DNA from: a virus
DNA length: 64,000 nt
Reading direction: 5' to 3' (one strand)
Virus genome (UHGV): UHGV-2031204
Shown piece after piece: positions 1 to 59,450 of this stretch; the stretch's first letter is position 1; every line of letters begins with the position of its first letter. Made by a program: the position numbers and the translations under genes. The notes below the pieces were generated by a model, which saw nothing but the letters and a program-made list of their open reading frames with translations, searched no databases and was not told the DNA's origin.

Positions 1-262
1 GAATGTCTTGACCTGCAGCTTTAACGTTTTGATAGCCTTCGTAGGCTTCTGCCGCAGGTTTAGGCATCCCTTTTAAAATAACCTGATCACGTTTGTTTTC
101 GGGCCAGATAGTCGACAACGCCGACTTACGGGCAGCACGAAATGTGTCCATGACCGGGTTACGCGATTGGTCTTGTTGACGAGGGGGCTCATCAAAATCG
201 TCCCAGTCGTCCATGTTATCAAGATCGATTTCATCGAAATCATCTTTACCTTTTTTAGCCAT
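1..262 (-). CDS. hypothetical acidic protein, 3' end truncated by window start
   Basis: Minus-strand ATG at 262, open to the window edge; translation begins MAKKGKDDFDEIDLDNMDDWDDFDEPP; divergent from the gene at 292. Confidence 0.6.
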   Translation of the reverse strand, partial: MAKKGKDDFDEIDLDNMDDWDDFDEPPRQQDQSRNPVMDTFRAARKSALSTIWPENKRDQVILKGMPKPAAEAYEGYQNVKAAGQDI

Positions 263-291
263 AACGTTTAATCCGTATCAGGAGATTTAGC

Positions 292-1911
292 GTGAATAAA
301 CTTAATTGGGTTGACTTTTATCTGCTCAATGTAAACAAGTCTCTTGTGTCGCGATTACGACCCGTCACGACCACGGATACTTTCCAGGGGTTAACAAAAA
401 ACTTTCACCCCGAAGGTCTTTACTCTACAGAGATTTTTGGACTCACGGGTAGTGAAGCGCGAGACTCTACATTCTCTTATATCGATATTAAGCTCGATAT
501 CATTTCGCCGACAGTGTGTTTGGCGTTATTCCAACTCAAACAACTCTACGAAGAAATTTGTTCTGGAAAACGCTACGCAACGTGGAGCGAAAAAGAAAAA
601 GATTTCGAACCGGCCTTGCCGGGAGACCCAGGCGCAGATACCGGTTTTAACTTCTTCCTCAGTCACTATAACGATTTAAAACCTAAGCGTAACGAGTCTC
701 TACAACGTGACGAAACCGTGGATTTCTTTTTGAAATTCCGTCCCGTTAGTCTTAGTCGATACGTTCTCGTGTTACCCGCGGGTTTACGCGATTTAGTAAT
801 TCGACAAGATGGTAGAGAGCAAGAAGAAGAAATCGGCGGGATGTATCGTCGGTTGGTATCTCTCGCCAGAGCGATCCCTGACCGGGCAACCCGTGTCGAG
901 TTAACTAACCCCGTACGCTGGAAACTTCAACAAACCTTCAATGATATCTGGATGTATTTCTTTAACATCCAGGACGGTAAAGGGGGTTTCCAACGTCGTA
1001 AAGTGACGTCTCGTAAGTTAATGAACGGGACACGTAACGTACTGTCCTCGTTCTCGACGGGGTCTAAATGCATGGGTCGTGAAGACGCTATTCGTCCCAC
1101 CGACACCAAAATTGGTTTATACCAGGGTTTAAAAGCATTACTCCCCGTTGCGCAGTACCAGATACGAGAACGTTACCTCGGTAACATCCGTGCCGGTGAT
1201 GGCAACCTTTACGGCGTAAACACCAAAACCCTTAAACGTGAATTCTTGGAAGTAGGTGGTCGTGTATACGACACCTTTACCACCGACGATGGGATTGAAT
1301 CCTTAATCAACCGAATGGAAGCTCGCGAGCTTCGCCATCAACCGATTATGTTGGACGACACCCACTACGTTGCGTTGGTTTACCAAGACACCAAACATTT
1401 TAAGGTGTTCTACGATATTGAAGAACTTCCTAAAACGTTTGACCGAAAATTCGTCCACGGTATGACGCTCGTCGAATTGCTTTATTTGTCGGGCTACGAA
1501 CTTTGGAACGATTATTTCGGTTTCGTTACACGTTATCCCGTTACAGGCCGAGGCTCGACGTATTCATCGACCATAAGATTGGAGACCACCACGTCATCTT
1601 TATACTTAAAAGAACTGGAAGATGACTGGGAAACTGAAAAACCCCGAGGGGCTATCAGCTACCCTGACCGGTCGGTTCCTACCTTCGTTGAGTCTATGGC
1701 ACCACACCCTTCACGCCTAGGTGGGTTAGGGGGTGACTACGACGGCGATACCGGGTCGTTTAACGCGCCTATGTCCCAGGAAGCGCTCGAGGAAAACCGG
1801 AACTGGATACACTCGAAAAACTACTGGTTCGATTCTGATGGGAACTTTAAAATCAATCCTATCAACAACGTGATTAAACGTGCAACGCAAGCGTTATTAA
1901 AGAACCCATAA
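292..1911 (+). CDS. multisubunit RNA polymerase beta-prime-like subunit, N-terminal module (DYDGD variant of the catalytic motif)
   Basis: GTG start 7 nt after GGAG; PEGLYSTEIFG resembles beta-prime PERDGLFCARIFGP; VLVLPAGLRDLV..DG..YRRLV resembles VLPVLPPDLRPLV..DG..YRRVI; GDYDGDTGSFNAPMSQEA aligns with NADFDGDQMAVHVPLTLEA. Confidence 0.75.
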   Translation: MNKLNWVDFYLLNVNKSLVSRLRPVTTTDTFQGLTKNFHPEGLYSTEIFGLTGSEARDSTFSYIDIKLDIISPTVCLALFQLKQLYEEICSGKRYATWSEKEKDFEPALPGDPGADTGFNFFLSHYNDLKPKRNESLQRDETVDFFLKFRPVSLSRYVLVLPAGLRDLVIRQDGREQEEEIGGMYRRLVSLARAIPDRATRVELTNPVRWKLQQTFNDIWMYFFNIQDGKGGFQRRKVTSRKLMNGTRNVLSSFSTGSKCMGREDAIRPTDTKIGLYQGLKALLPVAQYQIRERYLGNIRAGDGNLYGVNTKTLKREFLEVGGRVYDTFTTDDGIESLINRMEARELRHQPIMLDDTHYVALVYQDTKHFKVFYDIEELPKTFDRKFVHGMTLVELLYLSGYELWNDYFGFVTRYPVTGRGSTYSSTIRLETTTSSLYLKELEDDWETEKPRGAISYPDRSVPTFVESMAPHPSRLGGLGGDYDGDTGSFNAPMSQEALEENRNWIHSKNYWFDSDGNFKINPINNVIKRATQALLKNP

Positions 1912-1920
1912 GGCTAAGCA

Positions 1921-4900
1921 ATGCTGCTCATTAAACAGTTTAACCAACGCTTCTCGGTGCGTAAAACCGATGAGTTTGGTAATCCGAGGATTATCCCGCT
2001 CGAGAAGCTACAGATACCGCGAGGTTCTGTACTCCATGTCATTGATCTCGACCAGGTGGTGTTAGCGCCGCCTGCAACACTCGAGATTATTCAACCGTTA
2101 GAAAAACCTGCACAGGTTCGTCACCACTTTAAATTACCGGAAGACGGTATTAGCGGACATCCGCGCAACAAACCTGTTCAGGGGCAAGAACGTGCTATCT
2201 TTGCCTACCACCGTGCAAACCGCCCGATGCGTCGTCTTACCTCAGACGAACTGGTTCGCAAAGACTTAAAAGTTCTCCTGATCGAGAACTACACGCCGAT
2301 GCTATCGCACTACTACTATCCTGATACCCAGTTAGCCTGGTACGATAGATTGCGTAACATCCAACTGCTGATGATTAACCAGTTCAAATACAACACGCAA
2401 GAATACATGCGTCAGAACTATTTCGTTATTGAACTGGGTTCGGCATTACCTTCGTTCCAGAAGTTTCAAACAACTTATAACGACCGTGTTAAGAGCAAGA
2501 TTGAGAAGTTCCAGGACTTCAACTTGCTGTGGTTATTAGAACTGTTTGCTTGGGCTTATGGAAAACAATCCGATTCCTTATTCGCGGGAATGGATTTAAC
2601 TCAGCTGTCACGAATGAACTTTATCTTCACCCACAACACGGGCTTTACGTCCATGAACATGGGTGTTGTAGAGAAAATGCGTAAGTCCTCCGGCGGTCGT
2701 TTAAGTGACGACCAAATGGCCAGGATGTTCTACCGTACGCTGGTGCGTGTAATGACACAAGCACCGTCTAACGCGTACGAAGCGGAATTCCTAACGCCTG
2801 AAGGTGACGAACGTGTTTTCCTTAAAGACGTCGAAGAAGAAACCGTTGATGTTGTCGATGATGACGACGTTGTTAATGACGCTGTGGTCGAATCCGATAA
2901 CACCTTCGATGAAAAAGAAGACGTCGTTATTGAAGAACCGAAGGAAGACGTCAAACCGACGACAATTGTTGTCGAGAAAGTCATTCCGCACGACGAGATT
3001 ATTAAACAGGAAGCACAACGCTTAGCTGAAGCGGGCCGCTTAAGTTCTAAAGCTTATCAGTTCCTGTCAGAATCGTCTAAACGTTTCGTTCAGCTGCCTA
3101 ACCCGTATAACCCGAAAGAAACCTACGGGGAAGCGCTTACTGTTCACGAGAAAGACGTCGTCGTTAAAGCCGAGCCGAAAAAGGTTCAGCGACTTGTTAC
3201 CGACGAAGGGTGGGCCGAGAACGTCACCGACCAGATGGTGAAACAATACAACCAGACCATGATGACCAAAGACGTGCTGGCGGCGGTCGCCAGTTCACAA
3301 CGTTTGGGTCTGGCGATTCACAATCACACGGTGGAAAAAGAAGTTTCTGTTACAGGGACTATCGAGCACCACACTTTACGTGTTCAACCAGTCGGTGGTG
3401 AGCCGACAACCGTTCGCTTCTCTATCCCAGGCTTGACCGAGGACGGTACTTGGGTAGCTAATGGTGTCGAATACACCATGCGCCGACAACGTGTGGACTT
3501 ACCGATTCGTAAGGTTGCACCGGATACTGTCGCACTGACTACCGCATACGGTAAAAACTTTGTCCGTCGTAGTGATAAGGTCGCAAACGACTACGGTCGT
3601 TGGTTAACCAACGCGATTATCACACGCGCTGTTGACCCGACAAACACCGAAGTCACCGATGCACGTTTAGCAAATGTGTTCGATCCTACGCAACATCTGC
3701 CTCGTCAGTATACGGAGATTGCACGTCGTATTGCCAGCTTTAATGCGAATGGCTATATGTGGAACTTCGACTACAAAGAAGCCGTTAACTTCTTTAATGA
3801 CGAGCAACTCAGAGACGCCGATGCTGCCAAACTTTTGCCAGTGGCGAAACGTCCGCGTAGTGAAACAATCCTGGCAATGGATGACAAATCCATGCTTTAC
3901 GGTGTGAACGGAAACAAAGTTGAGCCGGTGGGAACTATCGCAGAGGTACTGGGCTTTAATAACCAGAAAGTGCCTCGCGAAATGACCGAGCTGTCTTTGA
4001 TGGGTAAATCTTTGTCGCTTGGTTTTATCTTCTCGTTCTACCTTGGACTCCAGGGAATGTTGAAACATTTCGGTATCCAGTACGAGTTGGTTCCCGCAGG
4101 GCAGCGTGTTGATAAGAATGCCTACGACAGTATTATTCGGCTACAAGACTGTAAACTTTTAGTTACATGCGATAACGATCAGCAGAAGATGATTCTGCAT
4201 GGTTTGGATCGCTATCTCAAACACCTGGTTGCTTATACCGAATCAGAAGCAGACCGCGAAGACATTTACCTGAACTTATTACGTGATGCAGATGGCCTAA
4301 CACCACGGTACATCAACGAGCTGAAACAGATGCGGTCCGCGTTTGTTGACGACATGCACGCACGTATCCTCAGGAAAATGGGTGAACCGGAAACCTTTAT
4401 TGGCTTGTTGGAACGTTCTAACGAACTGTTACAAACTGACCACTCTTTACCAGAGATTAACGGCGATGAAATGATGTTCTTAGGCAATCAGAGGATTGCC
4501 TACCACATCTATACTGCGATGGTCAGAGCGATGCGTAACTACAATAACGCACCGGGCAGTAACCGTAAGTTCGAACTGACGCAAGACATGGTTTGGGGTG
4601 CAATTAACTCCGACCCGTCGGTACTTTTGGCACCAGGCGCTAACCCTATCCAGTCAATTAAAGAAAAAGACGTTATTACGATGGGGGGTACAGGTGGCCG
4701 TAATCGTAAAACGATGGTCTACCACACGCGTGAATTCCAACCCAGTGATATCGGGATAGTCTCGGGTAACACCGTAGATAACGGTGACGTAGGTATTACA
4801 GCTTTCGTCACCAATAACCCACGTTTTGACACCGTTGACGGTACTACATTTAAACGTGAAGAGAAACCCCCGAAACCAAGCGATACCCTTTCGTTTATTG

Positions 4901-6087
4901 ACGGGTTAGTACCAGATACGTTAATGGACGACGCAAAGCGTCAAAACTTCGTTGGGATTCAGTTAGGTTCTGCCACCAGTTGTAATGGGGCAACCACAAC
5001 CCCGTATCGTACTGAACAGGAGAAATTCGTCGCACACCGTACGTCGGTGAAACATGCACGCGTTATTGATAAAGCAGGTAAGATTACTGGTCTGTCGAAA
5101 GACCACATTGAAATTACGTACGAAGATGGAAGTAAAGAAGCCTTTCCTCTAGGGCGCTGGTTCGGCCCCCACGAAGGTACCTTCTATCCGCACACCTTGG
5201 TAACACGCTGGAAAGCCGGTGACAAGCTCCCGGCCGGAGCAGTGATTACGTACAACGAGCAACACTTTGAACCTGATATTTACGATCCTACTCAGGTTTC
5301 CTGGAAAAACGGGGTGCTGGCTACCGTTGCTTTATTAGAAGCTGAAGAAGTTATCGAAGACTCCAATGCAATTTCTGAACGGTTCGCGAAGAAAATGGTA
5401 GGGCAGGTAACAAAGCTGAAAGAAGTAACGATTAACAGCAACCAAATGCTTTTGGAAATCGTGAATGAGGGCGACCACGTAGACGTCGATACAATCCTAT
5501 GCACGTTTACTGACGACTTGACAGGCGATATGAGTGCCTTTAGTCAGGAAGCAGCCGCAACGTTGCAAAGTTTAAGTTCGTACGCACCTCGTGCAGGGGT
5601 ACGTGGTATCGTGGATAAAATCGAAGTGGTGTATCACGGTGAAACCGAAGACATGACACCAAGCCTTGCTGAACTGGTGCGTAAATACGACAGAATTCGT
5701 CGTAAAGCCGCACTAGCAGTCGGACGAGGTGATCCGGTTTCAGGCAGTGTAAACGGCGACTACCGTGTCGAAGGTGTACCATTAGCCTTTAACTCACTTT
5801 GTGTTCGATTCTTTATTACACACGACGTTGAGATGGCCGCTGCGGATAAGATGGTTATTGCTAACCAGCTAAAAACCACCGTACAAGAAGTCATGTACGG
5901 CGACAACAAAACAGAGGATGGTGATGACCTGGACGTGTTGTTCGGTCGTGATTCTGTCGATGCGCGTATCGTAGGTTCAATCCAACGTATCGGTACCGCG
6001 AATGCTGTAGGTGAACAAGCCGGGATTCTCATCGGGCGTATACTCGATGGGGAAGCTGTGCCTGATTTACCCGCGACACTTAAATAA
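1921..6087 (+). CDS. RNA polymerase beta-like subunit (N-region homolog), 1388 aa with an acidic insertion
   Basis: [40 protein letters not shown] resembles beta [47 protein letters not shown] resembles HDDANRAL; poly-acidic stretch near 2820..2990; immediately follows the beta-prime-like gene. Confidence 0.5.
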   Translation: [1388 protein letters not shown]

Positions 6088-6093
6088 TCTCGA

Positions 6094-6113
6094 GGGGTGG
6101 GTCGCTCCCACCC
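6094..6113 (+). terminator. GC-rich hairpin after the RNAP gene (possible terminator or RNA structure; no U-tract)
   Basis: GGGGTGGGTCGCTCCCACCC perfect stem, not followed by T-run. Confidence 0.3.
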
Positions 6114-6134
6114 TGATAAACTCCGGAGAAGAGA

Positions 6135-6428
6135 ATGTCTATTCTAGATAAAATCAAACAGCGGCACGGTATTCCGACTGGGAAAAATATTACCCAGCAA
6201 AACGTGGAGGGATACAGTCCCATTCAACGTACCAACTACGTGTCTTTAGGTAATACCGTTGAATTAGCAACGGAGATTGTACATGGACTGATTCGCGGTA
6301 ACTCAGGAATGTCTGACCGTATCGGTGATCAGAAACTGCTGAAACGTGATATCGCAGATCTGGTGGGCGCGCGTTTGTACGCGATGCTTCGGGCGAACAT
6401 CAGCACGAATAAAGAGGTTAAACAATGA
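6135..6428 (+). CDS. hypothetical protein
   Basis: 97-aa ORF with GGAG-type RBS; stop overlaps next start (ATGA). Confidence 0.6.
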   Translation: MSILDKIKQRHGIPTGKNITQQNVEGYSPIQRTNYVSLGNTVELATEIVHGLIRGNSGMSDRIGDQKLLKRDIADLVGARLYAMLRANISTNKEVKQ

Positions 6429-7885
6429 TCAGTTTATACTCGCTGAATGCGGTTACTAACGCCATGAAACTGTGCAAGCAGCATAATGTTCAGCTTGGCA
6501 CAGACGTTGACTCTCCGGTTGATTTACTCAACCGTGCGGTCGACCCTACGCGCGTTTTCGATACCACAATCACCGACGAACAGTTCTTCCAGGAACTGCC
6601 TGCGATTACGCAGCTTAAACGTCCTGTAGACGGTACGGCGGAAGCTTCGATTATTCGTGACGGCGCTGTTGAAGTTGAAGCACTGCGTGTTGACGATCAC
6701 GAAACCACGCTATTCGAACTGAAGAACATGGCCATTCAGCGTTGTAACGGGATGCTGGACTTTGCCCGTAACGTTGTTCAACCATTTGTGCAGCTGGTTA
6801 TCCAAAATAACACGATTGAAGATGTCAAACCGTTGGTCGAAGACTGGAACCTGATTCCGGTAGGTATCGATCCGTGTGTGGATTCCCCAGTTGTCCAGGC
6901 GCTGATTCAAGAAATCGCCAACCCGATGGGTAACGGTACGACTTACGACCCAATCAAGTTCGATGTACCGACCGACATCGAGATTCCGGAAACAGGTGTA
7001 AAAGCGTACGATGAGATGGTGCGTAAATTACTGAACGACCTGAACCTCAGCATGTACGATGCAGCAAAACTGCTGCTGGCAGGTAACTACACCGTACCTG
7101 TTGCAGATAAAGCACCGGAGATGGTAAAAGAACGTGTTCTGGTGCTGCTGTTGTCTTCGTTCTTCATTGAACGTCCGTGGCCTGACTCAGGTGTTGACGC
7201 CCTGAAATGGAAAGCGGAAATGGGTCGTGCCTATTACACGTCTATCGGTTGGGTATACGGCTTTGAAAAAGCGGTGGCTAACCGTGTCGCCACAGGTAAC
7301 ATCGTTTACTCTTACGATACCAACGAGAAAAACGTCTATATCTGTCAGGAAACGATGGATGACTACCTGGAAAAAGGTGGTATCGTTGAAGCCCTGTTGG
7401 GTGCCATTTACCTGATGGACGAAGGCGACTATAACGTTTCCGCACGCGTGGCGTCTCTGCTGGAAAACCAGAAAGCCTACGTTGAAGCTTACAATCGTCG
7501 TGCGATTATCGTTCAGAAACGAAATGAACTCGATTGGGTAAGTCGTAACCGTCAGGCGTTGAAAACAGCGTTCTCGATTGCAATCGACCAACTCGACCAG
7601 GGCTACCTGACTGTTGGCGAACTGACGCGTACTCGCGAAGAAGTCAAGCAGGTTGTTATGGGTATTTGTGATGATTTCTTTGTCAACGCAGACGAAGACA
7701 TTACGTTGTTTATCATCCGGACTGCATGTAACTCCGTATTCTGCGCCTACGAAATTGATCCGCTGATGCGTACGATTCATACAGCAATGATTGAGAACAC
7801 CGACCCGGCAGAAGCCGCAACCAGTTGGATGATTGACTATGTACTGAACTGGATCGCAGGTTCAGTATTTGTCGATAAACTTTAA
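6425..7885 (+). CDS. hypothetical protein
   Basis: 486-aa ORF translationally coupled to the upstream gene. Confidence 0.7.
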   Translation: MISLYSLNAVTNAMKLCKQHNVQLGTDVDSPVDLLNRAVDPTRVFDTTITDEQFFQELPAITQLKRPVDGTAEASIIRDGAVEVEALRVDDHETTLFELKNMAIQRCNGMLDFARNVVQPFVQLVIQNNTIEDVKPLVEDWNLIPVGIDPCVDSPVVQALIQEIANPMGNGTTYDPIKFDVPTDIEIPETGVKAYDEMVRKLLNDLNLSMYDAAKLLLAGNYTVPVADKAPEMVKERVLVLLLSSFFIERPWPDSGVDALKWKAEMGRAYYTSIGWVYGFEKAVANRVATGNIVYSYDTNEKNVYICQETMDDYLEKGGIVEALLGAIYLMDEGDYNVSARVASLLENQKAYVEAYNRRAIIVQKRNELDWVSRNRQALKTAFSIAIDQLDQGYLTVGELTRTREEVKQVVMGICDDFFVNADEDITLFIIRTACNSVFCAYEIDPLMRTIHTAMIENTDPAEAATSWMIDYVLNWIAGSVFVDKL

Positions 7886-7903
7886 CGCGCTTAGGAGGTG
7901 ATC

Positions 7904-8632
7904 GTGAGTGCGATTGAAACAGCCCGTCGTGACCCTACTAAGGTTCATGCGGACTTGGTAAATAACGGCACGGTCACCACTACCAAAGGGGGATGTTACA
8001 TTTACATCCCCGTTGGGTTTGTGGCGAAAGAGTTGGCGGTTATTTCTTCTACGGTAACAATTGTAGGTATCTTTGCGATTTCTACCGACCGTAAAACATA
8101 TGGGGTGTCCAGCGTTACAACGCTTATGGAAATTACCCCAACGGCGTTTGAAGAGATCGACGTCTTTGGTGTTCCTTACTACGAATTTCGTTTTGATCCC
8201 GGTACAGTGGTTTTCCCCAACCGCAATTTACAGGTGTTGTCTCACCCTATTTACAACATTGCGTCGTATATTTACGACTTTGGTAATCGTCCTTTCTGGT
8301 TTACTGCGGCGGATGATGCTGAACTCTTGGCACCTGATAAAGTCAAGAAATGGAACGGTTTTACTGTATTTGCCGATCAGATTACCGCTGACGTTTACGC
8401 AGCACACACGCAGCGTAAAGTAGGTGATCCGAGAACGTTCTTCCGTTATACGCTGAAGAAAGATAGCGATCTTAACAACCCTGTGCAGTTTATTCCGTTG
8501 CGCAGTGGTTCACTTAACAAAACGTCGAGACTGGCGAAACTTGCGGACGTAGAACTTAAACGTGGTATTCGTTCTGCGTTACAGGTTGACCCGGTGCGTG
8601 CCGAACCGCTCGAAGATTTGTTTATGAGGTAA
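7904..8632 (+). CDS. hypothetical protein
   Basis: ORF with AGGAGG RBS at 7893-7898; start taken as GTG 7904 (ORF track begins at 7898). Confidence 0.65.
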   Translation: MSAIETARRDPTKVHADLVNNGTVTTTKGGCYIYIPVGFVAKELAVISSTVTIVGIFAISTDRKTYGVSSVTTLMEITPTAFEEIDVFGVPYYEFRFDPGTVVFPNRNLQVLSHPIYNIASYIYDFGNRPFWFTAADDAELLAPDKVKKWNGFTVFADQITADVYAAHTQRKVGDPRTFFRYTLKKDSDLNNPVQFIPLRSGSLNKTSRLAKLADVELKRGIRSALQVDPVRAEPLEDLFMR

Positions 8633-8663
8633 TCCTACCTTTTACTTTTACTCGGGGAAAACA

Positions 8664-9467
8664 ATGGATAATTTAACACTGCGTTACAACTGTGTAGCGT
8701 TAGCCGGTGTTAACGCTCCAGCCACACTGGAGAAAGACGCGGATGGTTATTACCGCGTACTATTGGGCGCTTTGAATATCTTTAACTCGGAAGGGATTTT
8801 TTACGCCTATAACGAGTCCAAACACGTATTCGAACGCTCGAACATTTTTATGCGTAAAGTGAAAGCAGGGAATCTGTTCGGGGAAGAAGATCACCCAGCA
8901 CCAGAACCCGGTATGACCGAAGCGCAATGGATTGATCGCAACGAATGGATTGAGACGAAAAACGTCTGTATGCACATTCGCGAAGTTGAAGTGATTCCAA
9001 CCGACCAAACCTGTAACGGCTTGCCGGTCATGGAAATCTGGGGCTGGGTTAAGCCGAACCGTGAACGTGGTCCGTACTTAGCAGAAGCGCTCGAAAACCC
9101 ACACCAGAATGTGTGTTTCTCTCTGCGCGCAATCGTACGTGAAGGCTATGTGGGCGGTGTGAAAACACGTCGCTTAGATCGCCTGGTGACGTTCGACTGG
9201 GTTATCGAAGACGGGTTGCAGATTTGTAACAAATACTCTGCAATTCAACGCGGTAGTAAAGTGGCGCAAGAATCCACTCGTGTACTGCTGGACCGTCGTG
9301 TTTCTCTCCAGGCGCTGGAGGACATTCTGCGAAATCCTAACACTACGTCTGCCATCGCGACAGAATCTCGTCGTGGTGAAGTTCGTGCGTTAGCGCAGGA
9401 GTACCTGGCCATCGCTAATAAGAAAACTAACCTACGTGTTATGGGTTTAGGTAACGGGAAGTGGTAA
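8664..9467 (+). CDS. hypothetical protein
   Basis: 267-aa ORF; stop adjacent to next start. Confidence 0.7.
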   Translation: MDNLTLRYNCVALAGVNAPATLEKDADGYYRVLLGALNIFNSEGIFYAYNESKHVFERSNIFMRKVKAGNLFGEEDHPAPEPGMTEAQWIDRNEWIETKNVCMHIREVEVIPTDQTCNGLPVMEIWGWVKPNRERGPYLAEALENPHQNVCFSLRAIVREGYVGGVKTRRLDRLVTFDWVIEDGLQICNKYSAIQRGSKVAQESTRVLLDRRVSLQALEDILRNPNTTSAIATESRRGEVRALAQEYLAIANKKTNLRVMGLGNGKW

Positions 9468-10106
9468 ATGGCTGATACTGTTGAACCTTCGTTGGTGAAG
9501 TGGTTAGAGCAACAACTGCCACGCACCGCAAAGAAAGTTTCTTTGAAAAAGTTAGATAGCGCCCCGTTACATATCAGCGATCGAAAGATTTCGGTTTTCA
9601 CGCCTCGGATTCCTTATAGCGTTTACAGAGACGAAGACAAAACGGTACCCCGTATTTGTTGTTCTGTCGATTTAGAACGTTGCCTGCGTGGTGTCCGTCG
9701 TTACTTTACACCTGCGGAAACCGCAAACGTTGTGCCACGTTTTTATCTGTATGGGTTCGACGAACGTGATGTCGTGCAACCCTCGATAGAACTGTCTGCT
9801 GAACCCTACCGCGCTAATGAAGTGTGGATTGTTCCTCACCGCTTATCAAACTGGGAAATTAAACCTAGTATGATTGGTGAACTGCGTTTAGTTCGACTGG
9901 CAAATAACGGATACACTCACACGTTAGCAGTAGCGCTTAACCAAGACGTTCGTTTGAATGCTAACCAGTTATTAAAGAGTGGTTCATTCTACGAACTTAC
10001 TGTAACGTGTAGTGAACGGGAACCTCAGATTACGATTTCTGATGCAAAGGAAATCTCTCGGGGTATTTTTGACGCTGCGTTAAACGAATACACTGTAACT
10101 CCATAA
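9468..10106 (+). CDS. hypothetical protein
   Basis: 212-aa ORF directly abutting the upstream gene. Confidence 0.7.
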   Translation: MADTVEPSLVKWLEQQLPRTAKKVSLKKLDSAPLHISDRKISVFTPRIPYSVYRDEDKTVPRICCSVDLERCLRGVRRYFTPAETANVVPRFYLYGFDERDVVQPSIELSAEPYRANEVWIVPHRLSNWEIKPSMIGELRLVRLANNGYTHTLAVALNQDVRLNANQLLKSGSFYELTVTCSEREPQITISDAKEISRGIFDAALNEYTVTP

Positions 10107-13967: not shown

Positions 13968-14008
13968 CCTACCTCCATGACGGAGGTAGGTAAACTTATT
14001 TTTTTTTG
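13968..14008. terminator. bidirectional intrinsic terminator between convergent genes
   Basis: CCTACCTCCATGACGGAGGTAGG hairpin flanked by A-run upstream and T9 downstream. Confidence 0.75.
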
Positions 14009-14009
14009 C

Positions 14010-14885
14010 TTAACGAAGCTGATTTGCCATCTGCTCGTCGGACACAGAACGATAACCGCCAGCCGTAGCATCGACGTCTGGGTTGATGCCGTTGGTCTGT
14101 TGAGACGGAGTAAGCCACAGTTTGCGTTCGTAAGGACGCAGGCCGTAAAGCTTCATGCGCTCCAGTTCTTTCTGAGCTGCCTGCATCGGACCCCAACCTG
14201 TCCATTGCTGGGAGGTGAAGGTGATAGACAGTTCGTTGGTCTGAGGACCGGTGTTCGGGTCACGTTCACCGATATCCTGACCGTTAGACTCAGGAGCCAT
14301 GTTCGTCAGCCACCAAGCGTTCTGCGGTTTACGCTGATACGCATCCGGTTCGAAATACAGCACGGTCATGCTGTACATATCCGGCAGGTGGTCAGGAACG
14401 TTCGGGTTGATTGCCGCCAGACCAGGGTGGCCTGTGTGCGGGTCACAAACACCGTATACCAGCCACGCCCAGAGCATGTTCTGATACACTTTACCCAGTT
14501 TATCCGGGGTCGTGTGCGTAACCGAAGACAGTGCTTCGGTTACCAGACCAGCTTCGTACTGAACGCGGTTGTTACGTCCCTGCTGAGTCTGTACGTACTC
14601 AGCACTCAGGGATTTGTCCAGGCCGGTAATCGTGGTGTGAACCTCGATGAACGATTTGATTGCCTGACGCCACAGTTGTGGGTTCGGCATGTAATCAACC
14701 CAACGAGGGAACTCCATCACACGTGCGATTACGTTACGACGCAGACGGTGGGCGTTGGTAACGAACTTACCAACCTGACCGACCGGACCGTTTTGACCAG
14801 ACGAGAAGGGGTTAACCATATCGTACTGGCCGCCGTCGACGTGGAGGCCCTGGTCAGGTAAAATCATGCGTTCTTTGATAGACAT
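14010..14885 (-). CDS. hypothetical protein, probable abundant virion structural component
   Basis: 291-aa minus-strand ORF; GGAGG RBS and TAATAGATG stop-start coupling with the upstream 685-aa gene; opposite-strand ORF 13977..14861 is Arg-rich antisense-like. Confidence 0.7.
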   Translation of the reverse strand: MSIKERMILPDQGLHVDGGQYDMVNPFSSGQNGPVGQVGKFVTNAHRLRRNVIARVMEFPRWVDYMPNPQLWRQAIKSFIEVHTTITGLDKSLSAEYVQTQQGRNNRVQYEAGLVTEALSSVTHTTPDKLGKVYQNMLWAWLVYGVCDPHTGHPGLAAINPNVPDHLPDMYSMTVLYFEPDAYQRKPQNAWWLTNMAPESNGQDIGERDPNTGPQTNELSITFTSQQWTGWGPMQAAQKELERMKLYGLRPYERKLWLTPSQQTNGINPDVDATAGGYRSVSDEQMANQLR

Positions 14886-25930: not shown

Positions 25931-25953
25931 ACGGATAGATATTATCCTAGTGA
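25931..25953 (+). promoter_or_regulatory. conserved promoter-like element (GATA/TATC inverted-repeat core)
   Basis: ACGGATAGATATTATCCTAGTGA in divergent intergenic region, 30 nt upstream of ATG 25984. Confidence 0.55.
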
Positions 25954-29672: not shown

Positions 29673-29748
29673 GGGGGTGTAGCACAATTGGTAGTGCAGC
29701 GGTCTCCAAAACCGAAGGTTGGGAGTTCGAAACTTCCCGCCCCCGCCA
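29673..29748 (+). tRNA. tRNA-Trp (anticodon CCA)
   Basis: 76-nt cloverleaf read by hand: acceptor GGGGGTG/CGCCCCC, D-arm GCAC-AATTGGTA-GTGC, anticodon loop CTCCAAA, T-arm GGGAG-TTCGAAA-CTTCC, discriminator G, encoded CCA; very similar to E. coli tRNA-Trp. Confidence 0.85.
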
Positions 29749-41811: not shown

Positions 41812-41854
41812 ACCAACACTACAATTGTATTAAACCTTATAAGGATTAAGTAAA

Positions 41855-43702: not shown

Positions 43703-43731
43703 TAAGTTGGTAAGTAGTAAGCAGTAGTTGA

Positions 43732-43774
43732 GGGACAGGGGAAAACCCCCTGTCCCTTCCCTCTCTTTTTTTGT
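43732..43774 (+). terminator. strong intrinsic terminator after the codon-optimised 615-aa gene
   Basis: GGGACAGGGGGAAAACCCCCTGTCCC hairpin followed by TTCCCTCTCTTTTTTTG. Confidence 0.85.
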
Positions 43775-43786
43775 TGAGGATTCGGC

Positions 43787-45394
43787 GTGGAACATAAACT
43801 AGAATATTACGGGATTTCGGGGCGACTAATTAGTCACGACAAGATGTTACGTGACTGTATACAAGAAGCGGAGGAAAAAGGCTACAAACCACCGATTATT
43901 ATCAATGACGTTGCTGCAACGATGGATACCATCGAAGCGTCGGAGATGATTAACCAAATACTCCAAAACCGAATCGTTGATGAAACACTCAACTCGGCTC
44001 CTATTTGCAGTCTGACCTGCGAATCACCTATTACCCATCGTTATAATCTTGGGCTACGTTGCCCACATTGCGGACATGTTGTTTCTGAACATCGGATTAC
44101 GTCCGATGTCTGGTTACGCGCCCCCGATGAGATGGGTAACTTTATCAATCCACGTTTTTGGTCTCTCTTTAATGCCTTCTTTGGCTCTAAGCTGAAAAAA
44201 TTTAATCGTAACAAAGTGACGGTAGAGCGCGGGTCTGATTTACTGCTGTGGCTAATCGATCCGTACTACCATCCAGAAAAGGACGAAGGAACACGTGCTC
44301 GCGTGGTGAAAAGAATACTCGGCGAACATGGCTTCGAACGGGGAATTCGAAACTTTATCGACCACCATCGAACCGTCTTTAATATCCTTACGTCCCCGGA
44401 AGCTTGGAAGGAGATTTATCCGCCAACGAAAAATAACCGTTATGAGAGTGAGCGCGTACGCTTAGAATGGCGTGAGTTCTTTCAGGAACAATCGTTCTCA
44501 TTCTTTCCAAGACACCTTCCGATTATTTCATCAAAACTGATCGTTACGGAGGAACGTCGACAAGGTATTTTTATCGATCCGGTTTATACCAGCGCTATCG
44601 ACGCAGTAAAAAATGTGGCGTTGTTGTACACGAATGCACGTCGTATCGAACCACGATTTATTATTCGTCGCGCAATCAAAGCGAATCGACAGCTTGCGTA
44701 TTTCTATATTGACCATCGTCAGGAAGTGATGGAAGGTAAACCTGGGTTCTATCGGGCAAAACTCGGGTCAACACACGTACCGTGGGGCGGACGTGTGACT
44801 ATCTCTCCTATCTCTGAACCTCACGATGCGTTGAAAGTTATTGCGCCTTGGCGTTGGTTGGTTCCGTTGGCGAGTGTTCACATCGAGAACAAGTTAGGTC
44901 GTCGTGATTATACACCTCGACAATGTGAGCGCATTATTGCATTTGCGGCAATGCAGTATGTACCGCTGGTACATGAAATTATTAATGAGTTGATTAAAGA
45001 ATCCCCCGGCGGATTCGGCTTAATGTTGGAAGTTCTGCGTAACCCAACATTGGTTCAACTTTCTATTCAGACATTGTTCATCTCAGCGGTACTGACAGAT
45101 GTAACACAATGTTCTCTGCGTATTTCTGATCGTGTCATCAAAGCGCCTAACGCTGATTTCGATGGCGACCAGTTACAATGCAGATTGGCAATCGACCAGA
45201 TTGAAATGGAACTGGGCATGGCTTATCGCCCAGACAACGGGTTTATGTCAAGCACGAATGTGGACGAGGTTTCGAGTTGTATGATTCTCCATAACGAGAA
45301 TATCAGCAACATAAACAGTTTCTTCCAGGATACTGAAGAGGACTTGGAAGCCGGTATCGCGCTTGACTCTGAATTATTAAAATTGGCGGGGTAA
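43787..45394 (+). CDS. multisubunit RNA polymerase beta-prime subunit, N-terminal module
   Basis: Canonical APNADFDGDQLQ catalytic motif near the C-terminus; Cys cluster CSLTCE...CPHCGH (zinc-binding-like); GTG start. Confidence 0.85.
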   Translation: MEHKLEYYGISGRLISHDKMLRDCIQEAEEKGYKPPIIINDVAATMDTIEASEMINQILQNRIVDETLNSAPICSLTCESPITHRYNLGLRCPHCGHVVSEHRITSDVWLRAPDEMGNFINPRFWSLFNAFFGSKLKKFNRNKVTVERGSDLLLWLIDPYYHPEKDEGTRARVVKRILGEHGFERGIRNFIDHHRTVFNILTSPEAWKEIYPPTKNNRYESERVRLEWREFFQEQSFSFFPRHLPIISSKLIVTEERRQGIFIDPVYTSAIDAVKNVALLYTNARRIEPRFIIRRAIKANRQLAYFYIDHRQEVMEGKPGFYRAKLGSTHVPWGGRVTISPISEPHDALKVIAPWRWLVPLASVHIENKLGRRDYTPRQCERIIAFAAMQYVPLVHEIINELIKESPGGFGLMLEVLRNPTLVQLSIQTLFISAVLTDVTQCSLRISDRVIKAPNADFDGDQLQCRLAIDQIEMELGMAYRPDNGFMSSTNVDEVSSCMILHNENISNINSFFQDTEEDLEAGIALDSELLKLAG

Positions 45395-55051: not shown

Positions 55052-55082
55052 ATCGTTCCTAAAATAAGTGAGATAGATATTA
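55052..55082 (+). promoter_or_regulatory. conserved promoter-like element
   Basis: AAAATAAGTGAGATAGATATTATCCTACTGA in divergent intergenic region, 31 nt upstream of ATG 55114. Confidence 0.55.
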
Positions 55083-55113
55083 TCCTACTGAATCAACCTA
55101 AAGGAGCATTAAA

Positions 55114-57351
55114 ATGAAAACGCCAGTAGAGCTAATGAGCAGTGTGGCTGACCGTGAGATTAATATCACCGAAGTATCAGGTGCAAGGGCATCGATGGTA
55201 GGCAACCATATGAAGTCTGCGGTCCCTATCGACAATCCTGAACCATCGCCACATTTTACAGGGGCAGATATAAACTACCACGATTTTCTGTTCAATGACG
55301 TTGTAGAAGATCCCGGTAGCATCTGCCACTATATGACCAAAGACGGTCGTCAGCGCCGCGCGACGTTTACACGTTATGGTCGTCGTGGGGATTCTAAAGC
55401 GTTGGAACATGCTATCTTCTTCCGCCGTGCAGAAATGAAGGGCGGTAAAACCATGATAGATGTGCTGGAGATTAACTTCTATACTAACCACGACAACATC
55501 TTCTCATCTGAGAAACGTGAGTCGATGAAACTGCGTAGTATTTTACGTGGCGAAACCGATCAGTTGGAAAAGGATGAAATCCTTACAACGATGTCGTGTA
55601 TGGTGGAAGGCGAGTACGCCGATAGCGTCGTGTTACCAACCGTTACGATTTCGCATCCTGATATCATCGAGGATTCTTACACCATCTCTGAGTACGCCGC
55701 CCAAAAACTCCACGGTTATGGTTTGAAAATCGTTGAAAAGACGCTACGTGAAGACGAGTTTTTACTGGATACTTACGGTTATATCGATCCGAACGGTAAT
55801 CGCGTCCCACGGTATTTCCCGGATGTGGGGGAGGCTATTCGTGACGATGGGTTGGTCATTGCATCGCGTCGTTTCGATGAGCTTTACGGTGCAATTGATG
55901 CGTCGCTTGGGGAAACCCAACACGTCTCTCCGTTCTTTGATAGTTGCGAATATGTGGATGCCGATCCCGTCCATTATAAAGCACGTCTTGCAGGCGACAA
56001 AGAACTGATGGAACGTAGCGGTACACGTATCGTCGATATCCAGGTGTGGCGTGATGAAACGTCTTGCGCGAATGGTGCTAACAATATTTCTTGTACCGAA
56101 GAGAACAAACGAGAACTGGATAAATACGCATTAGCATTGAAAGACTATTACAATGCCATCGTACGATTCTATTTCTCAATGTCCCGTGACAAAAATATTA
56201 TCTGGTCGCCGAAAGCGTGCGTGTTGTTGGAAAAAGCGTTCGCTTCTGAAACATACGAGGTCTATCACGAGTTTCGTGAAGAGATACGCGTGGTGATTGA
56301 TGAAGCAATTCGTCGTGGTGAATACGGTAAAGAAAATGTCAGTCAGCAGATTCTTTCTAAGTTGACCTCGCCAGTACAACGTGGACTCAGCGATCCCATC
56401 AACACGTATACCATTCGTATTGCTGTTCGTTATCCGATCCCGGTAACGGTGTCGTCTAAGATTACCGACCGCTCGGGTACGAAAGGGATTGTTGGGCGTG
56501 TATTGCCCGTTGAGCAGATGCCGATTAACGAATTCGGTGAACGTGTTCACGTTTTACGTTCGATGAACGCTGTAATTCGTCGCTCGACTTATGCAGCATT
56601 ATTCCACATGTATTGGTCAGCTGCGTCTGAACAGTTGAAAATGCGTCTTAAACCATTGCTGGATGAAGGACGTATCAGCGAGAGCTGGGAAATCCTGATG
56701 GATTATCTATCACGCTATAATCCAGAATGGGCCAATACACTACAGGCAACGCATCCTACGGAGGATTTACAACGCGAACTTTTCAAAGAGATTTACGATT
56801 TTACAATCCGTATTTACTTACCACATGAACTTGACGACACGCCAGTCGATATCAGTGAACGGTTGGGTGAATTTAAACCGCGTAAATCCAAACTCCTGAT
56901 TACTAATTTCGATGGTAAACAGGAATGGACAAAAAATGAGTTTTACGTAGGTGGTGTGGAAACATTACGTCTGGATAAAACAGGTCGTGAGTTTTCCAGC
57001 ATCTCGTCAATGTATCTGAATTATCTGGGTACGATAGATGCGTCTAACCAAGGCCGTGGTTCGTATCCGATAAACTATAAAACGCTAAAATGGGCTGGTC
57101 CTTCGGAAGAACGACTGTTAGCGGGTTATGGTCCAGGTAACTACGAAGAAGTTCACGACAGGGCAAATAACCCTGCGGTGCATCGTGAGATTTTAGTAGG
57201 GCTTTATCGATCTCAAACCCCGTCTAATCCGGGTCCACTGGTAGACCGGAATAAATTCCCGTTAGGGGATTCACAGATTGACAGGATGATGAAAAACATC
57301 CACAGCTGTGAAGGGTTTGAATTGGTGAAAATGAAAAGGGGCGATGAATAA
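55114..57351 (+). CDS. multisubunit RNA polymerase beta subunit, C-terminal module
   Basis: DRSGTKGIVGRVLPVEQMPINEFGERVHVLRSMNAV aligns with beta [41 protein letters not shown]; downstream GRGSY...LLAGYGPG resembles RSTGSYS...EAYGAA; CCTAAAGGAG leader and promoter-like motif. Confidence 0.8.
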   Translation: MKTPVELMSSVADREINITEVSGARASMVGNHMKSAVPIDNPEPSPHFTGADINYHDFLFNDVVEDPGSICHYMTKDGRQRRATFTRYGRRGDSKALEHAIFFRRAEMKGGKTMIDVLEINFYTNHDNIFSSEKRESMKLRSILRGETDQLEKDEILTTMSCMVEGEYADSVVLPTVTISHPDIIEDSYTISEYAAQKLHGYGLKIVEKTLREDEFLLDTYGYIDPNGNRVPRYFPDVGEAIRDDGLVIASRRFDELYGAIDASLGETQHVSPFFDSCEYVDADPVHYKARLAGDKELMERSGTRIVDIQVWRDETSCANGANNISCTEENKRELDKYALALKDYYNAIVRFYFSMSRDKNIIWSPKACVLLEKAFASETYEVYHEFREEIRVVIDEAIRRGEYGKENVSQQILSKLTSPVQRGLSDPINTYTIRIAVRYPIPVTVSSKITDRSGTKGIVGRVLPVEQMPINEFGERVHVLRSMNAVIRRSTYAALFHMYWSAASEQLKMRLKPLLDEGRISESWEILMDYLSRYNPEWANTLQATHPTEDLQRELFKEIYDFTIRIYLPHELDDTPVDISERLGEFKPRKSKLLITNFDGKQEWTKNEFYVGGVETLRLDKTGREFSSISSMYLNYLGTIDASNQGRGSYPINYKTLKWAGPSEERLLAGYGPGNYEEVHDRANNPAVHREILVGLYRSQTPSNPGPLVDRNKFPLGDSQIDRMMKNIHSCEGFELVKMKRGDE

Positions 57352-59450
57352 TGAAGGGCACTCCAGTTCACGTGCGTGATCTGTGTAAACTGAACTCGGA
57401 TCAGGTGTGGCTATTGCGCGGCAGATATGAAGTGACGTTCGATGACGGGATAACCTTAAACATGTCAGGACGCCACATTAAAATCAGTTGGCCTTATTGG
57501 GGGCTAACACGATTTTATCCGCAGATCCCAATCAGTTCGCAAATGGCGTATAAACATGGCGACACCGCTACAGATGACGCACATCTGAAGTTTATGTCAT
57601 TGGCAGCTGTGGCAGCACGTAAAGCGGGTGTGGATTTAGCAGATACCCGCTATTTATTGCAGCAGCACGTCTATGCGGATGCGTTTAACTTATCGGTGAA
57701 AAATCTGTTGTCGTATTGTGTCACGATTGACTACGATACGATGATGGAAATTTACCAACACCGAAATTTTACGCAGATTCATCAGTGGGCACAAATGTAT
57801 CCTACTGGGTACGACGAAGAAGGTCGGGATATGATCGAAGAAGCGTATCTTCTTATCGAAGATATCTTCAAAGACCCACAACTTCGTTTAAACCCTGTGG
57901 TGATGTCGGTCTTGGATAAAACCATCAAAATGAACCAGGTTCTCCAGGCGTATATACGCGGGAAAACGTCAGAGATTGATTCTCGCGTTTATTCTAACCA
58001 GGTATGGGAAGGTTTCTTTACGGGCCTACATTCTGTAATTAGCCGTCTGAAAGAAGCGGGAGCGACGTCACGTTCTCACCTGTATAATACCGATAAAATC
58101 GCCGATGCGGAATATGCGTCACGTAAGCTACAGTTAGCAGCCAACGTGTTAATGTATTTCGAATACGACGATTGCGGTACGCATCATGTTCACCGCCACA
58201 CGTTTACAGAAAGTAAACTGGAGCGTAAGAAGTACGATGCGATGGTAGGGATGCGTTATCGTTTTGAAGGCGTGGGAGGCCCGTGGCTACGATTCGAGAA
58301 AGGGGAGTTTGAGAAAGTCTTAGGTAAACCTATTGAGTTTCGTACCGCGATGTGCTGTAAGGGGATGGCACGTCAAAGCATTTGTGCAACGTGCATGGGT
58401 GATTTGATTTATAACCTTTCGCCGGGAACGTCCCCAGGTCACTTGGCTTCAACCTCGATATCTGAAAAGGGTACGCAGGGGATTCTCTCAACGAAGCACT
58501 TGGACTTCTTACGTTATCTGCTGAATCTGGTACTGACTCCGAGAATGCGGGATTATCTTGGGGAGTATAAACACAACTCCGTAAAAGGGTTGAGTTTACG
58601 GGAGAAACCGCAGTACGGTAATTGGGATGAATACCAACTCGTTATTTCTGATGAAGTCTATTCTGAAATCAGCCAAATCGCGTATCATGACGATTTGGAA
58701 GTGATCGACGAAACGGCATTGCCGGAGATTAACGAACTGACCTTTTTGCGGTTGGATGAAGCTGGGAATGTGTTGGCTGAAGATCCCATTGACGTCCGTA
58801 TGGGGGTTTGTGGTAACTTCTCGAAAGCCTTCTTGCATTTCTTCCTGAAACAGCGCGATAACATTACCTTCCCGTCGAAGAAGCTGGTACGGATTCCCCT
58901 GAAAGGATGGAAACCGAGTTGGCCGATACTAATTTATACGAATCGGTCTGAATCTATGGCGGAGTTTGTAGCAGGGTTAGAATTGAAACTTCGTTCGGTT
59001 GCGTCTGATAAATCGGATACTTTCGAACAGTTCTCTGATGACTCAATGCGTTTGAGCAAGAAGTCGGGTAAGGTAAAACCAACGACTCTGGTTCAGATGC
59101 GCGGTGCTACGGAGAAACAATGTACGCACGCGTTATTTGATGTGTTTAAATATATCCAACGTAAGCTCGGTGGTATTCCGATGACACACATCGCGATTAT
59201 GCTGGCGATATCACGCGTTGAATCACCGACCAATCCTTTCCCGGCGGTTGGGTTTGATAGTGAAGATGCTGATGTGATGGATGGCAAACGTTTCGAGGAT
59301 CACAATACGTTGATTGCGATGCGTTCAGCTGTACCGATGTTGTTATTCGAAGGCCAACAGAAAAACCTGGACAACGTGCGTTTCTACACGTCGCGTAAAC
59401 GTCCGGCGTCGTTATACGACAATACGGTGGCCGCGACTATCATTGAGTAA
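57351..59450 (+). CDS. multisubunit RNA polymerase beta-prime subunit, C-terminal module
   Basis: CATCMGDLIYN...SISEKGTQGILSTKHL aligns with beta-prime CAHCYGRDLARG...SIGEPGTQLTMRTFH (trigger-loop region G); start overlaps upstream stop (ATAATG). Confidence 0.8.
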   Translation: MKGTPVHVRDLCKLNSDQVWLLRGRYEVTFDDGITLNMSGRHIKISWPYWGLTRFYPQIPISSQMAYKHGDTATDDAHLKFMSLAAVAARKAGVDLADTRYLLQQHVYADAFNLSVKNLLSYCVTIDYDTMMEIYQHRNFTQIHQWAQMYPTGYDEEGRDMIEEAYLLIEDIFKDPQLRLNPVVMSVLDKTIKMNQVLQAYIRGKTSEIDSRVYSNQVWEGFFTGLHSVISRLKEAGATSRSHLYNTDKIADAEYASRKLQLAANVLMYFEYDDCGTHHVHRHTFTESKLERKKYDAMVGMRYRFEGVGGPWLRFEKGEFEKVLGKPIEFRTAMCCKGMARQSICATCMGDLIYNLSPGTSPGHLASTSISEKGTQGILSTKHLDFLRYLLNLVLTPRMRDYLGEYKHNSVKGLSLREKPQYGNWDEYQLVISDEVYSEISQIAYHDDLEVIDETALPEINELTFLRLDEAGNVLAEDPIDVRMGVCGNFSKAFLHFFLKQRDNITFPSKKLVRIPLKGWKPSWPILIYTNRSESMAEFVAGLELKLRSVASDKSDTFEQFSDDSMRLSKKSGKVKPTTLVQMRGATEKQCTHALFDVFKYIQRKLGGIPMTHIAIMLAISRVESPTNPFPAVGFDSEDADVMDGKRFEDHNTLIAMRSAVPMLLFEGQQKNLDNVRFYTSRKRPASLYDNTVAATIIE

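Follow-up and report, generated by a model that had tools for sequence, protein, structure and literature searches.

The virion-packaged RNA polymerase (vRNAP) of the jumbo phage SPN3US is composed of five subunits, namely gp240 (beta'N), gp42 (beta'M), gp244 (beta'C), gp241 (betaN), and gp218 (betaC), all of which were found by mass spectrometry in virions as well as in tailless heads (PMC5105663, PMC5694885, PMC10052503). Amber mutations in gp241, gp218, or gp244 yield particles devoid of all five subunits, and the authors of that work concluded that vRNAP assembles before its incorporation into the prohead (PMC5105663, PMC5694885, PMC10052503); gp240 and gp241 are essential (PMC5105663, PMC5694885). 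Enzymes of this kind are ejected together with the phage DNA and transcribe the early genes without help from the host polymerase and irrespective of rifampicin (PMC7598289, PMC13282480). These phages are not known to encode alpha, omega, or sigma, and according to a 2020 review no vRNAP had been purified by that time (PMC7598289). Here, we describe a pair of adjacent genes (positions 292-6087) in a 64,000-nucleotide stretch of the virus genome UHGV-2031204, referred to below as the window. As judged from their sequences, the two genes very probably encode the beta'N and betaN subunits of a virion-packaged multisubunit RNA polymerase (RNAP) of an SPN3US/phiEaH2-like jumbo phage.

Both genes are related to their SPN3US counterparts over the full length: the protein encoded at 292-1911 shares 86% identity with gp240, the one encoded at 1921-6087 shares 77% identity with gp241, and the product of a third gene of the same block (7898-8632, 244 amino acids, aa) is 86% identical to gp244. 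The gene order is that of SPN3US, i.e., gp239 (divergent), gp240, gp241, gp242, gp243, gp244, and the prohead protease, followed by the sheath and the terminase (22134-24242), and it is found likewise in phiEaH2. In a megablast comparison with phage genomes, 99-100% of the pair aligned at ~75% nucleotide identity to the Erwinia phages phiEaH2, Stratton, and Asesino, and its 3' half at ~74% to SPN3US-like Salmonella phages. The closest proteins in a large protein collection, with 96% (beta'N) and 93% (betaN) identity, originate from Salmonella assemblies. An earlier note on this DNA, made from the sequence alone, had proposed a virion polymerase distinct from a second set of polymerase genes at 43.8-59.5 kb; the proposal is borne out by the orthology with gp240/gp241 and by synteny, the other set being gp23/gp34/gp35-like.

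The first gene was recognized in that note as a beta' N-terminal module, and a family profile, a structural model, and a protein-family match all lead to the same assignment. The protein matches PHROG 2986 (E 7e-234). A beta'N family profile built from 32 homologues retrieved from the PDB the beta' subunit of the non-virion RNAP (nvRNAP) of phage AR9 (E 2.4e-13), as well as plastid and bacterial beta' subunits (E 3e-9 to 1e-5), and where beta' or A' subunits of plastids, bacteria, and archaea were aligned to profiles, the NADFDGD of their catalytic loop was matched by the D(F/Y)DGD column. The AlphaFold model of the protein, built on the 32-sequence alignment, has a mean predicted local distance difference test score (pLDDT) of 81; in a Foldseek search of the PDB the top 50 listed matches were all beta' chains (E 6e-14 to 1e-10, probability 1.00). 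The low template modeling scores (~0.3) are due to the isolated multi-domain subunit not being modelled in the conformation of the complex.

The motif GGDYDGDTG is located at residues 480-488 of the 539-aa protein, in the context SMAPHPSRLGGLGGDYDGDTGSFNAPMSQEA. When every open frame of 100 aa or more in the 64 kb is scanned in all six frames, D.DGD occurs just twice, the other copy being the NADFDGD at nucleotide (nt) 45155, within the open reading frame (ORF) 43787-45394; the DYDGD is therefore no chance match. When the whole-family profile was aligned to E. coli beta' with hhalign, only residues 140-252 were covered (E. coli 218-356), short of the motif, and the alignment with the beta'N of the window's own nvRNAP was confined to the middle region (probability 40%). 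The catalytic loop was tested with a sub-profile of the last 155 residues, which aligned window residues 468-529 to E. coli beta' 446-508 (probability 87.6%, E 3.5e-6). In this alignment D482, D484, and D486 are paired with D460, D462, and D464, Y483 with F461, G481 with A459, and G480 with N458. Searched against the PDB, the sub-profile had 79 matches, the best 60 of which were all RNAP beta'/A' chains at the catalytic-loop region. The DYDGD is thus homologous to the catalytic loop, and D482, D484, G485, and D486 are invariant across the 32 aligned homologues. The idea that DYDGD marks an inactive paralogue was rejected, as none of the catalytic residues has been lost and DYDGD is also what the essential SPN3US enzyme carries.

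The 1388-aa protein encoded by the second gene matches PHROG 3148 (1907 bits), and its relation to beta subunits, as well as the reality of the Rif-region-like segments reported earlier, follows from profile comparisons. A betaN family profile of 22 sequences matched Thermus beta (E 6.5e-14) in two segments, with residues 985-1114 corresponding to Thermus 530-655 and residues 1299-1389 to Thermus 822-915, and hhalign aligned residues 905-1350 to E. coli beta 516-1107 (probability 92.7%, E 4.4e-7). Residues D1003, E1146, D1147, D1309, K1310, and K1318 are invariant in the betaN family, and D1004 is nearly so (at least 90%). The Rif-region segment and the beta-side motifs of the active centre (DD, ED, and DK...K) occur in the collinear order of beta. 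Upstream of these segments, residues ~501-523 resemble by eye the N-terminal beta motif IPLMTEDGSFIINGADRVIVSQ; the HMMER alignment in this part is weak. The replacement of the residues that contact rifampicin in the bacterial enzyme would fit the known rifampicin-independence of these phages.

The homology to beta stops ~200 residues before the beta C-terminus (Thermus 915 of 1119, E. coli 1107 of 1342), which agrees with the published betaN/betaC split, in which betaC is gp218 (PMC5105663). The protein consists of about four fifths of beta, lacking the last ~200 residues, and of a phage-specific N-terminal module of ~350-450 residues. The earlier description of it as larger than a whole bacterial beta is correct with regard to length (E. 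coli beta has 1342 aa) and misleading with regard to content, as a beta fragment is combined here with an extra module. A beta-beta' fusion and a complete beta were both considered and rejected: the alignment goes no further than E. coli beta 1107, and the protein contains no segment of beta'.

The front end of betaN comprises a basic domain and an acidic linker. The domain (residues 1-285) is well conserved and was confidently modelled as an alpha/beta fold (pLDDT ~90). A Foldseek search against predicted viral structures returned eight matches with E<=1e-3, all of them jumbo-phage vRNAP beta homologues with 12-20% identity, two of which are stand-alone proteins of 461-462 aa. The 285-residue profile matched 1007 sequence clusters in an exhaustive HMMER search; in all of the 150 listed matches the domain is located at or within ~40 residues of the N-terminus, and the lengths of the proteins that carry it group at ~1400-1470, 1000-1110, and 540-630 aa. 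On these grounds, the N-terminal module can be regarded as a hallmark of vRNAP beta. The linker that follows is predicted to be disordered. The corresponding interval (window residues 280-359) spans 70-135 residues in 22 homologues and is variable in sequence and acidic in all of them. The poly-acidic insertion placed by the earlier note at about 2820..2990 lies within this linker, as a 17-residue run at betaN residues 310-326 (nt 2848-2898). In SPN3US gp241, the N-terminal part of ~400 residues without homology to bacterial beta was proposed to target the complex to the head (PMC5105663, PMC5694885, PMC10052503). A role of the module in head targeting, or in assembly without alpha, is a published hypothesis.

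The variation of the catalytic loop was surveyed in 110 family members and the window protein. In these 111 sequences the middle residue of the D.DGD loop is Phe in 63, Tyr in 38, and His in 10, and it is coupled to the residue that precedes the first Asp: Gly precedes Tyr in 38/38, Ala precedes Phe in 61/63 (the remaining two have Gly), and His occurs with either (six with Ala, four with Gly), whereas the pair Ala-Tyr has a count of zero. A neighbour-joining tree requires at least 11 changes of the middle residue and at least nine of the preceding one, which indicates that the Gly-Tyr/Ala-Phe coupling arose repeatedly. We infer that Gly next to Tyr could be a steric compensation for the extra hydroxyl group of Tyr; the covariation does not seem to have been described before. 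Among the listed relatives with more than ~65% identity, including SPN3US as well as phiEaH2-like and CR5-like phages, the middle residue is Tyr or His and never Phe. The rule given in the literature for the catalytic loop is DxDGD, where x is bulky (PMC7598289), and the exchange of Phe for Tyr is a conservative change that is tolerated by the family and does not point to altered chemistry. Of the contrast between GDYDGDTG and NADFDGD drawn in the earlier note, the observation itself is retained (the motif is present and the Asn-Ala is lost); what is not retained is the peculiarity of this phage, as the variant is common throughout the clade.

The Tyr variant together with the lost Asn-Ala might also be taken as a specialized active site of what is still a vRNAP, with a changed selectivity between ribonucleoside and deoxyribonucleoside triphosphates (NTP and dNTP), metal preference, or fidelity suited to transcription after ejection. 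In cellular RNAPs the residue corresponding to E. coli beta' N458 touches the ribose of the NTP and has been termed universally conserved (PMC7862312); its equivalent is Gly here, and the position is not conserved in the beta'N family (G16, Q4, V3, N2, T2, and A2 of 32 sequences). The A459 equivalent is G481, so that the Asn-Ala before the motif is absent. The lack of any Tyr without a preceding Gly (0/38), the 61/63 Phe residues that follow Ala, and the recurrent changes on the tree further speak for a structural constraint around the side chain. We nevertheless consider such a specialization improbable. The middle position needs nothing more than a bulky residue (PMC7598289), and Phe, Tyr, and His alternate among close relatives. 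The AR9 nvRNAP with its GDYDGD was purified and characterized as an RNAP (PMC7598289) and crystallized on a promoter (PMC9209446). Finally, the N458S substitution in E. coli changes selectivity less than 5-fold, and the chief determinant of ribose selectivity is beta' R425, within NRAP (PMC7862312), which appears, by an alignment made by eye, to be retained as R414.

A more far-reaching proposal is as follows: the basic ~285-aa domain, for which no structural relative was detectable, would constitute with the acidic linker an undescribed fold serving as an assembly and capsid-targeting platform of an alpha-less polymerase, which would explain all-or-none packaging, and the Gly-Tyr/Ala-Phe alternation would be a tunable property of the active site, not neutral drift. 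This proposal is speculative, and we lean against it.

The pair also differs from the second polymerase set in its promoter-like signals. The ORFs 43787-45394, 55114-57351, and 57351-59450 match RNAP PHROGs and correspond in position, ORF size, and annotation to SPN3US gp23, gp34, and gp35. The short motif TAGATATTATC is the most over-represented one in the window and the only AT-rich one strongly so, with 10 matches (at most one mismatch) against 0.93 expected, all of them at 25.9-55.1 kb. The seven sites on the plus strand (11-mers at 25936, 33913, 41714, 41794, 49875, 51286, and 55074) have the extended AT-rich consensus AAAATA..GA-TAGATATTATC-ytAnTGA; several of them are followed, after ~30-40 nt, by the ribosome-binding site and start codon of an early-region gene (e.g., 55074, ahead of the polymerase gene at 55114). 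TAGATATTATC is present at the corresponding positions of SPN3US, including 28972 before gp34, and early promoters of these phages have been described as AT-rich (PMC7598289). In 1-6200 no match with fewer than two mismatches was found, in line with the absence of an early promoter motif remarked on earlier, and upstream of the beta'N gene there was none with fewer than three; near SPN3US gp240/gp241 the motif was not found either. The lack of TAGATATTATC at the pair suggests late expression, together with the structural genes.

These data bear on a swapped identity of the two sets, in which the pair would be the non-virion polymerase and the set at 43.8-59.5 kb the virion enzyme. Nothing favors the exchange beyond the beta/beta'-like nature of both sets, and its likelihood is next to nil: the orthologues gp240/gp241 were detected in heads by mass spectrometry and the other set is gp23/34/35-like (PMC5105663), the early-promoter-like motif stands before the other set and not before the pair, and a large betaN with a small betaC in an enzyme of five polypeptides is the split pattern of vRNAPs (PMC7598289).

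Some points weigh against the assignment of the pair to a vRNAP. The window contains three of the five expected subunits (beta'N, betaN, and beta'C); by synteny with SPN3US, the gp42-like (beta'M) gene would be located just past the 3' end of the window, and the gp218-like (betaC) gene would also fall beyond the window ends. Single-sequence searches (Pfam, NCBIfam, and phmmer against the PDB) gave nothing useful for either protein, the 1388-aa one retrieving with phmmer spurious laccase matches alone (E>0.1), so that it is profiles and fold that tie the pair to cellular RNAP. The pLDDT at the catalytic loop is ~61-64, i.e., of moderate confidence. The Arg of TRYP, R414, is invariant in the beta'N family, and its match to beta' R425 was made by eye in a part for which no tool provided an alignment. 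Lastly, TAGATATTATC is a probable, and not a certain, early promoter for the vRNAP in this group of phages, as suggested by its position, enrichment, and conservation and by the literature.

The extreme divergence from cellular RNAP, with no Pfam or NCBIfam match for the two proteins and a published identity of 14% to the nearest bacterial beta' (PMC5105663), might be read as a loss of function, in which the pair would be degenerate, polymerase-derived internal head or ejection proteins that are no longer catalytic. The presence of a large non-polymerase N-terminal module would agree with this, as would the disturbed capsid assembly of phiKZ upon loss of the orthologous subunit (10.1101/2023.09.30.560319). 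Such a loss is very unlikely in view of the catalytic residues of both subunits, which are invariant across very divergent homologues. Moreover, phiKZ-like early transcription proceeds without host RNAP or new protein synthesis and so requires an injected polymerase (PMC7598289, PMC13282480), and SPN3US particles without vRNAP look intact and are not viable (PMC5694885).

With the pair read as subunits of an active vRNAP, a sequence of events can be proposed by analogy with described phages. Following the SPN3US and phiKZ literature, the pair would be expressed late, alongside the structural genes. The beta'M (gp42-like) and betaC (gp218-like) subunits, encoded outside the window, would complete a five-subunit enzyme devoid of alpha, omega, and sigma, the loading of which into the prohead may be all-or-none and dependent on betaN. 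Upon infection the enzyme would be ejected with the DNA and would transcribe the early genes, those for the non-virion polymerase among them, in a manner that needs no host polymerase and is insensitive to rifampicin. The features of the locus are collected in Table 1.

Table 1. Predicted features of the polymerase gene pair, its surroundings, and the second polymerase set (positions in the window)
Feature	Position	Strand	Remarks
5' end of gp239-like giant tail-fibre/virion protein gene	1..262	-	Divergent; start codon 262-260
Shine-Dalgarno AGGAGA	281..286	+	5 nt upstream of the GTG start of the beta'N gene
vRNAP beta' N-terminal subunit gene	292..1911	+	GTG start, 539 aa, SPN3US gp240 orthologue; double-psi beta-barrel with Mg-binding loop
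Catalytic loop D482-Y483-D484-G485-D486	1735..1749	+	Equivalent to E. coli beta' D460-F461-D462-G463-D464; preceding G480-G481 = N458-A459
vRNAP beta N-terminal (large) subunit gene	1921..6087	+	ATG start, 1388 aa; orthologue of SPN3US gp241 and phiKZ gp178 (PMC5105663; 10.1101/2023.09.30.560319)
vRNAP-specific N-terminal alpha/beta domain, aa 1-285	1921..2775	+	Isoelectric point (pI) 9.7; without homology to cellular beta
Acidic predicted-disordered linker, aa 286-346	2776..2958	+	25 D/E and 5 K/R in 62 residues, pI 4.05
Rif-cluster-I-like segment, aa 905-927	4633..4701	+	Against E. coli beta 516-538; D516->P, H526->E, R529->V, S531->T
D1003-D1004	4927..4932	+	Against E. coli beta D674-D675; gene uninterrupted here
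E1146-D1147, active-centre acidic pair	5356..5361	+	Against E. coli beta E813-D814
D1309-K1310...K1318	5845..5874	+	Against E. coli beta GDKMAGRHGNK (D1064, K1065, K1073)
vRNAP beta' C-terminal subunit gene	7898..8632	+	244 aa, SPN3US gp244 orthologue; same gene block, 1.8 kb downstream of the pair (PMC5105663, PMC5694885)
Non-virion RNAP beta'N gene	43787..45394	+	Resembles SPN3US gp23 in position and annotation; NADFDGD of the canonical form (nt 45155-45169)
Two non-virion RNAP subunit genes	55114..59450 (55114-57351, 57351-59450)	+	SPN3US gp34/gp35-like by position and annotation; motif upstream at 55074-55084

The two genes of the pair are closely spaced, with the ATG of the 1388-aa ORF 9 nt past the stop codon of the ORF 292-1911. 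The gap between the divergent starts of the gp239-like gene and the beta'N gene amounts to 29 bp (263-291), and the spacing is equal in phiEaH2 and SPN3US. With starts merely 29 bp apart, the promoters of both genes must fall within coding sequence. Scans for sigma70 promoters and terminators in 1-9600 produced nothing above the shuffled background; sigma70-like sites were in fact depleted there (3 against 10.0 +/- 2.5 in shuffles), in keeping with a phage that makes no use of the host polymerase.

The only RNA that Rfam detected across the whole window was a tRNA, and neither gene of the pair contains an intron. The tRNA, a tRNA-Trp (anticodon CCA), is located at 29673-29748; SPN3US likewise has a tRNA-Trp close to the start of its record. 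Two pairs of ORFs overlap nearly completely in antisense orientation, namely 41846-43795 (-) with 41855-43702 (+), of 649 and 615 aa, and 13977-14861 (+) with 14010-14885 (-), of 294 and 291 aa. Judging by SPN3US synteny, the real genes are the plus-strand gp22-like and the minus-strand gp255-like ORFs, and their antisense partners look like shadow ORFs.

Introns are known from some relatives. Group I introns occur in certain vRNAP genes, in PhiPA3 after the DD of beta, whereas the window genes are uninterrupted; this DD site of beta is the intron-homing site in PhiPA3/phiKZ (10.1101/2023.09.30.560319). In a relative from JGI metagenome 3300035493 (4001-6080, 6109-9165), the beta'N ORF breaks off at ELGAD, and FDGDTGSGD takes up the frame again ~390 nt further on. 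A group-I-intron-like RNA is found at 5453-5839 of that relative (Rfam RF00028, 32.2 bits, E 1.4e-5, below the gathering score), and the stop and the resumption that flank it point to an intron inside the DFDGD codons. Its adjacent beta ORF ends just after MHDD, which is the homing-intron site of PhiPA3 gp210. Such stubs, of 475-497 aa, make up 10 of the 120 listed beta'N homologues.

The practical value of the analysis lies in correct annotation, as three vRNAP genes and three non-virion polymerase genes can be named with confidence, and DYDGD should be taken neither as inactivation nor as a special adaptation. Those who work on vRNAPs may find it helpful to know how betaN is divided into domains (the N-terminal one having no known fold and being followed by a conserved acidic linker), how Gly and Tyr covary in the catalytic loop, and which residues of the Rif pocket are substituted.

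In comparison with known systems, the locus shares with bacterial RNAP (E. coli RpoC/RpoB, Thermus thermophilus) the double-psi beta-barrel centre, the aligned catalytic residues, and the Rif-cluster-I backbone NP...GGxGG. It differs in the five split polypeptides, in the lack of NA before DxDGD, in the Rif contacts (D516P/H526E/R529V/S531T), and in the ~350-450-aa N-terminal module without a cellular counterpart. PDB profile searches with both families found no vRNAP chain, and the best match among solved structures is the beta' subunit of the AR9 non-virion RNAP (PDB 7S00/7S01; PMC9209446), with E 2.4e-13 by profile and 6e-14 by fold. Its crystallized beta' carries SGDYDGD, i.e., the same G-D-Y-D-G-D form of the loop. 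The AR9 enzyme comes from a Bacillus uracil-DNA phage, is a non-virion one with ~14-15% identity, and differs in its subunit set and promoter-recognition subunit.

The vRNAP of phiKZ (gp178 beta, gp180 beta'N) and other Chimalliviridae is likewise a beta/beta' enzyme split into five polypeptides without alpha, omega, and sigma; the head carries it as cargo, and early transcription is its task (PMC7598289, PMC13282480). The N-terminal domain of betaN is common to the phiKZ-type enzymes and the present one, whereas the beta'N identity to phiKZ is ~32-33% only and many phiKZ-type relatives have ADFDGD instead of GDYDGD. With SPN3US the locus has in common the GGDYDGDTGS loop, the N-terminal extension of betaN together with its acidic linker, and the neighbors, namely the divergent gp239 upstream and, downstream, gp242-gp245, among which are beta'C (gp244) and the prohead protease. 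The acidic linker encoded in the window is 13 residues shorter than that of SPN3US, and the phage is a different one, with phiEaH2 (~75% nucleotide identity) as the nearest record in the phage collection. The system is already known and the phage is new to the SPN3US/phiEaH2 group; the modest additions to what has been described for this group are the Gly-Tyr covariation, an N-terminal domain without a structural relative, and an acidic linker that is present family-wide.

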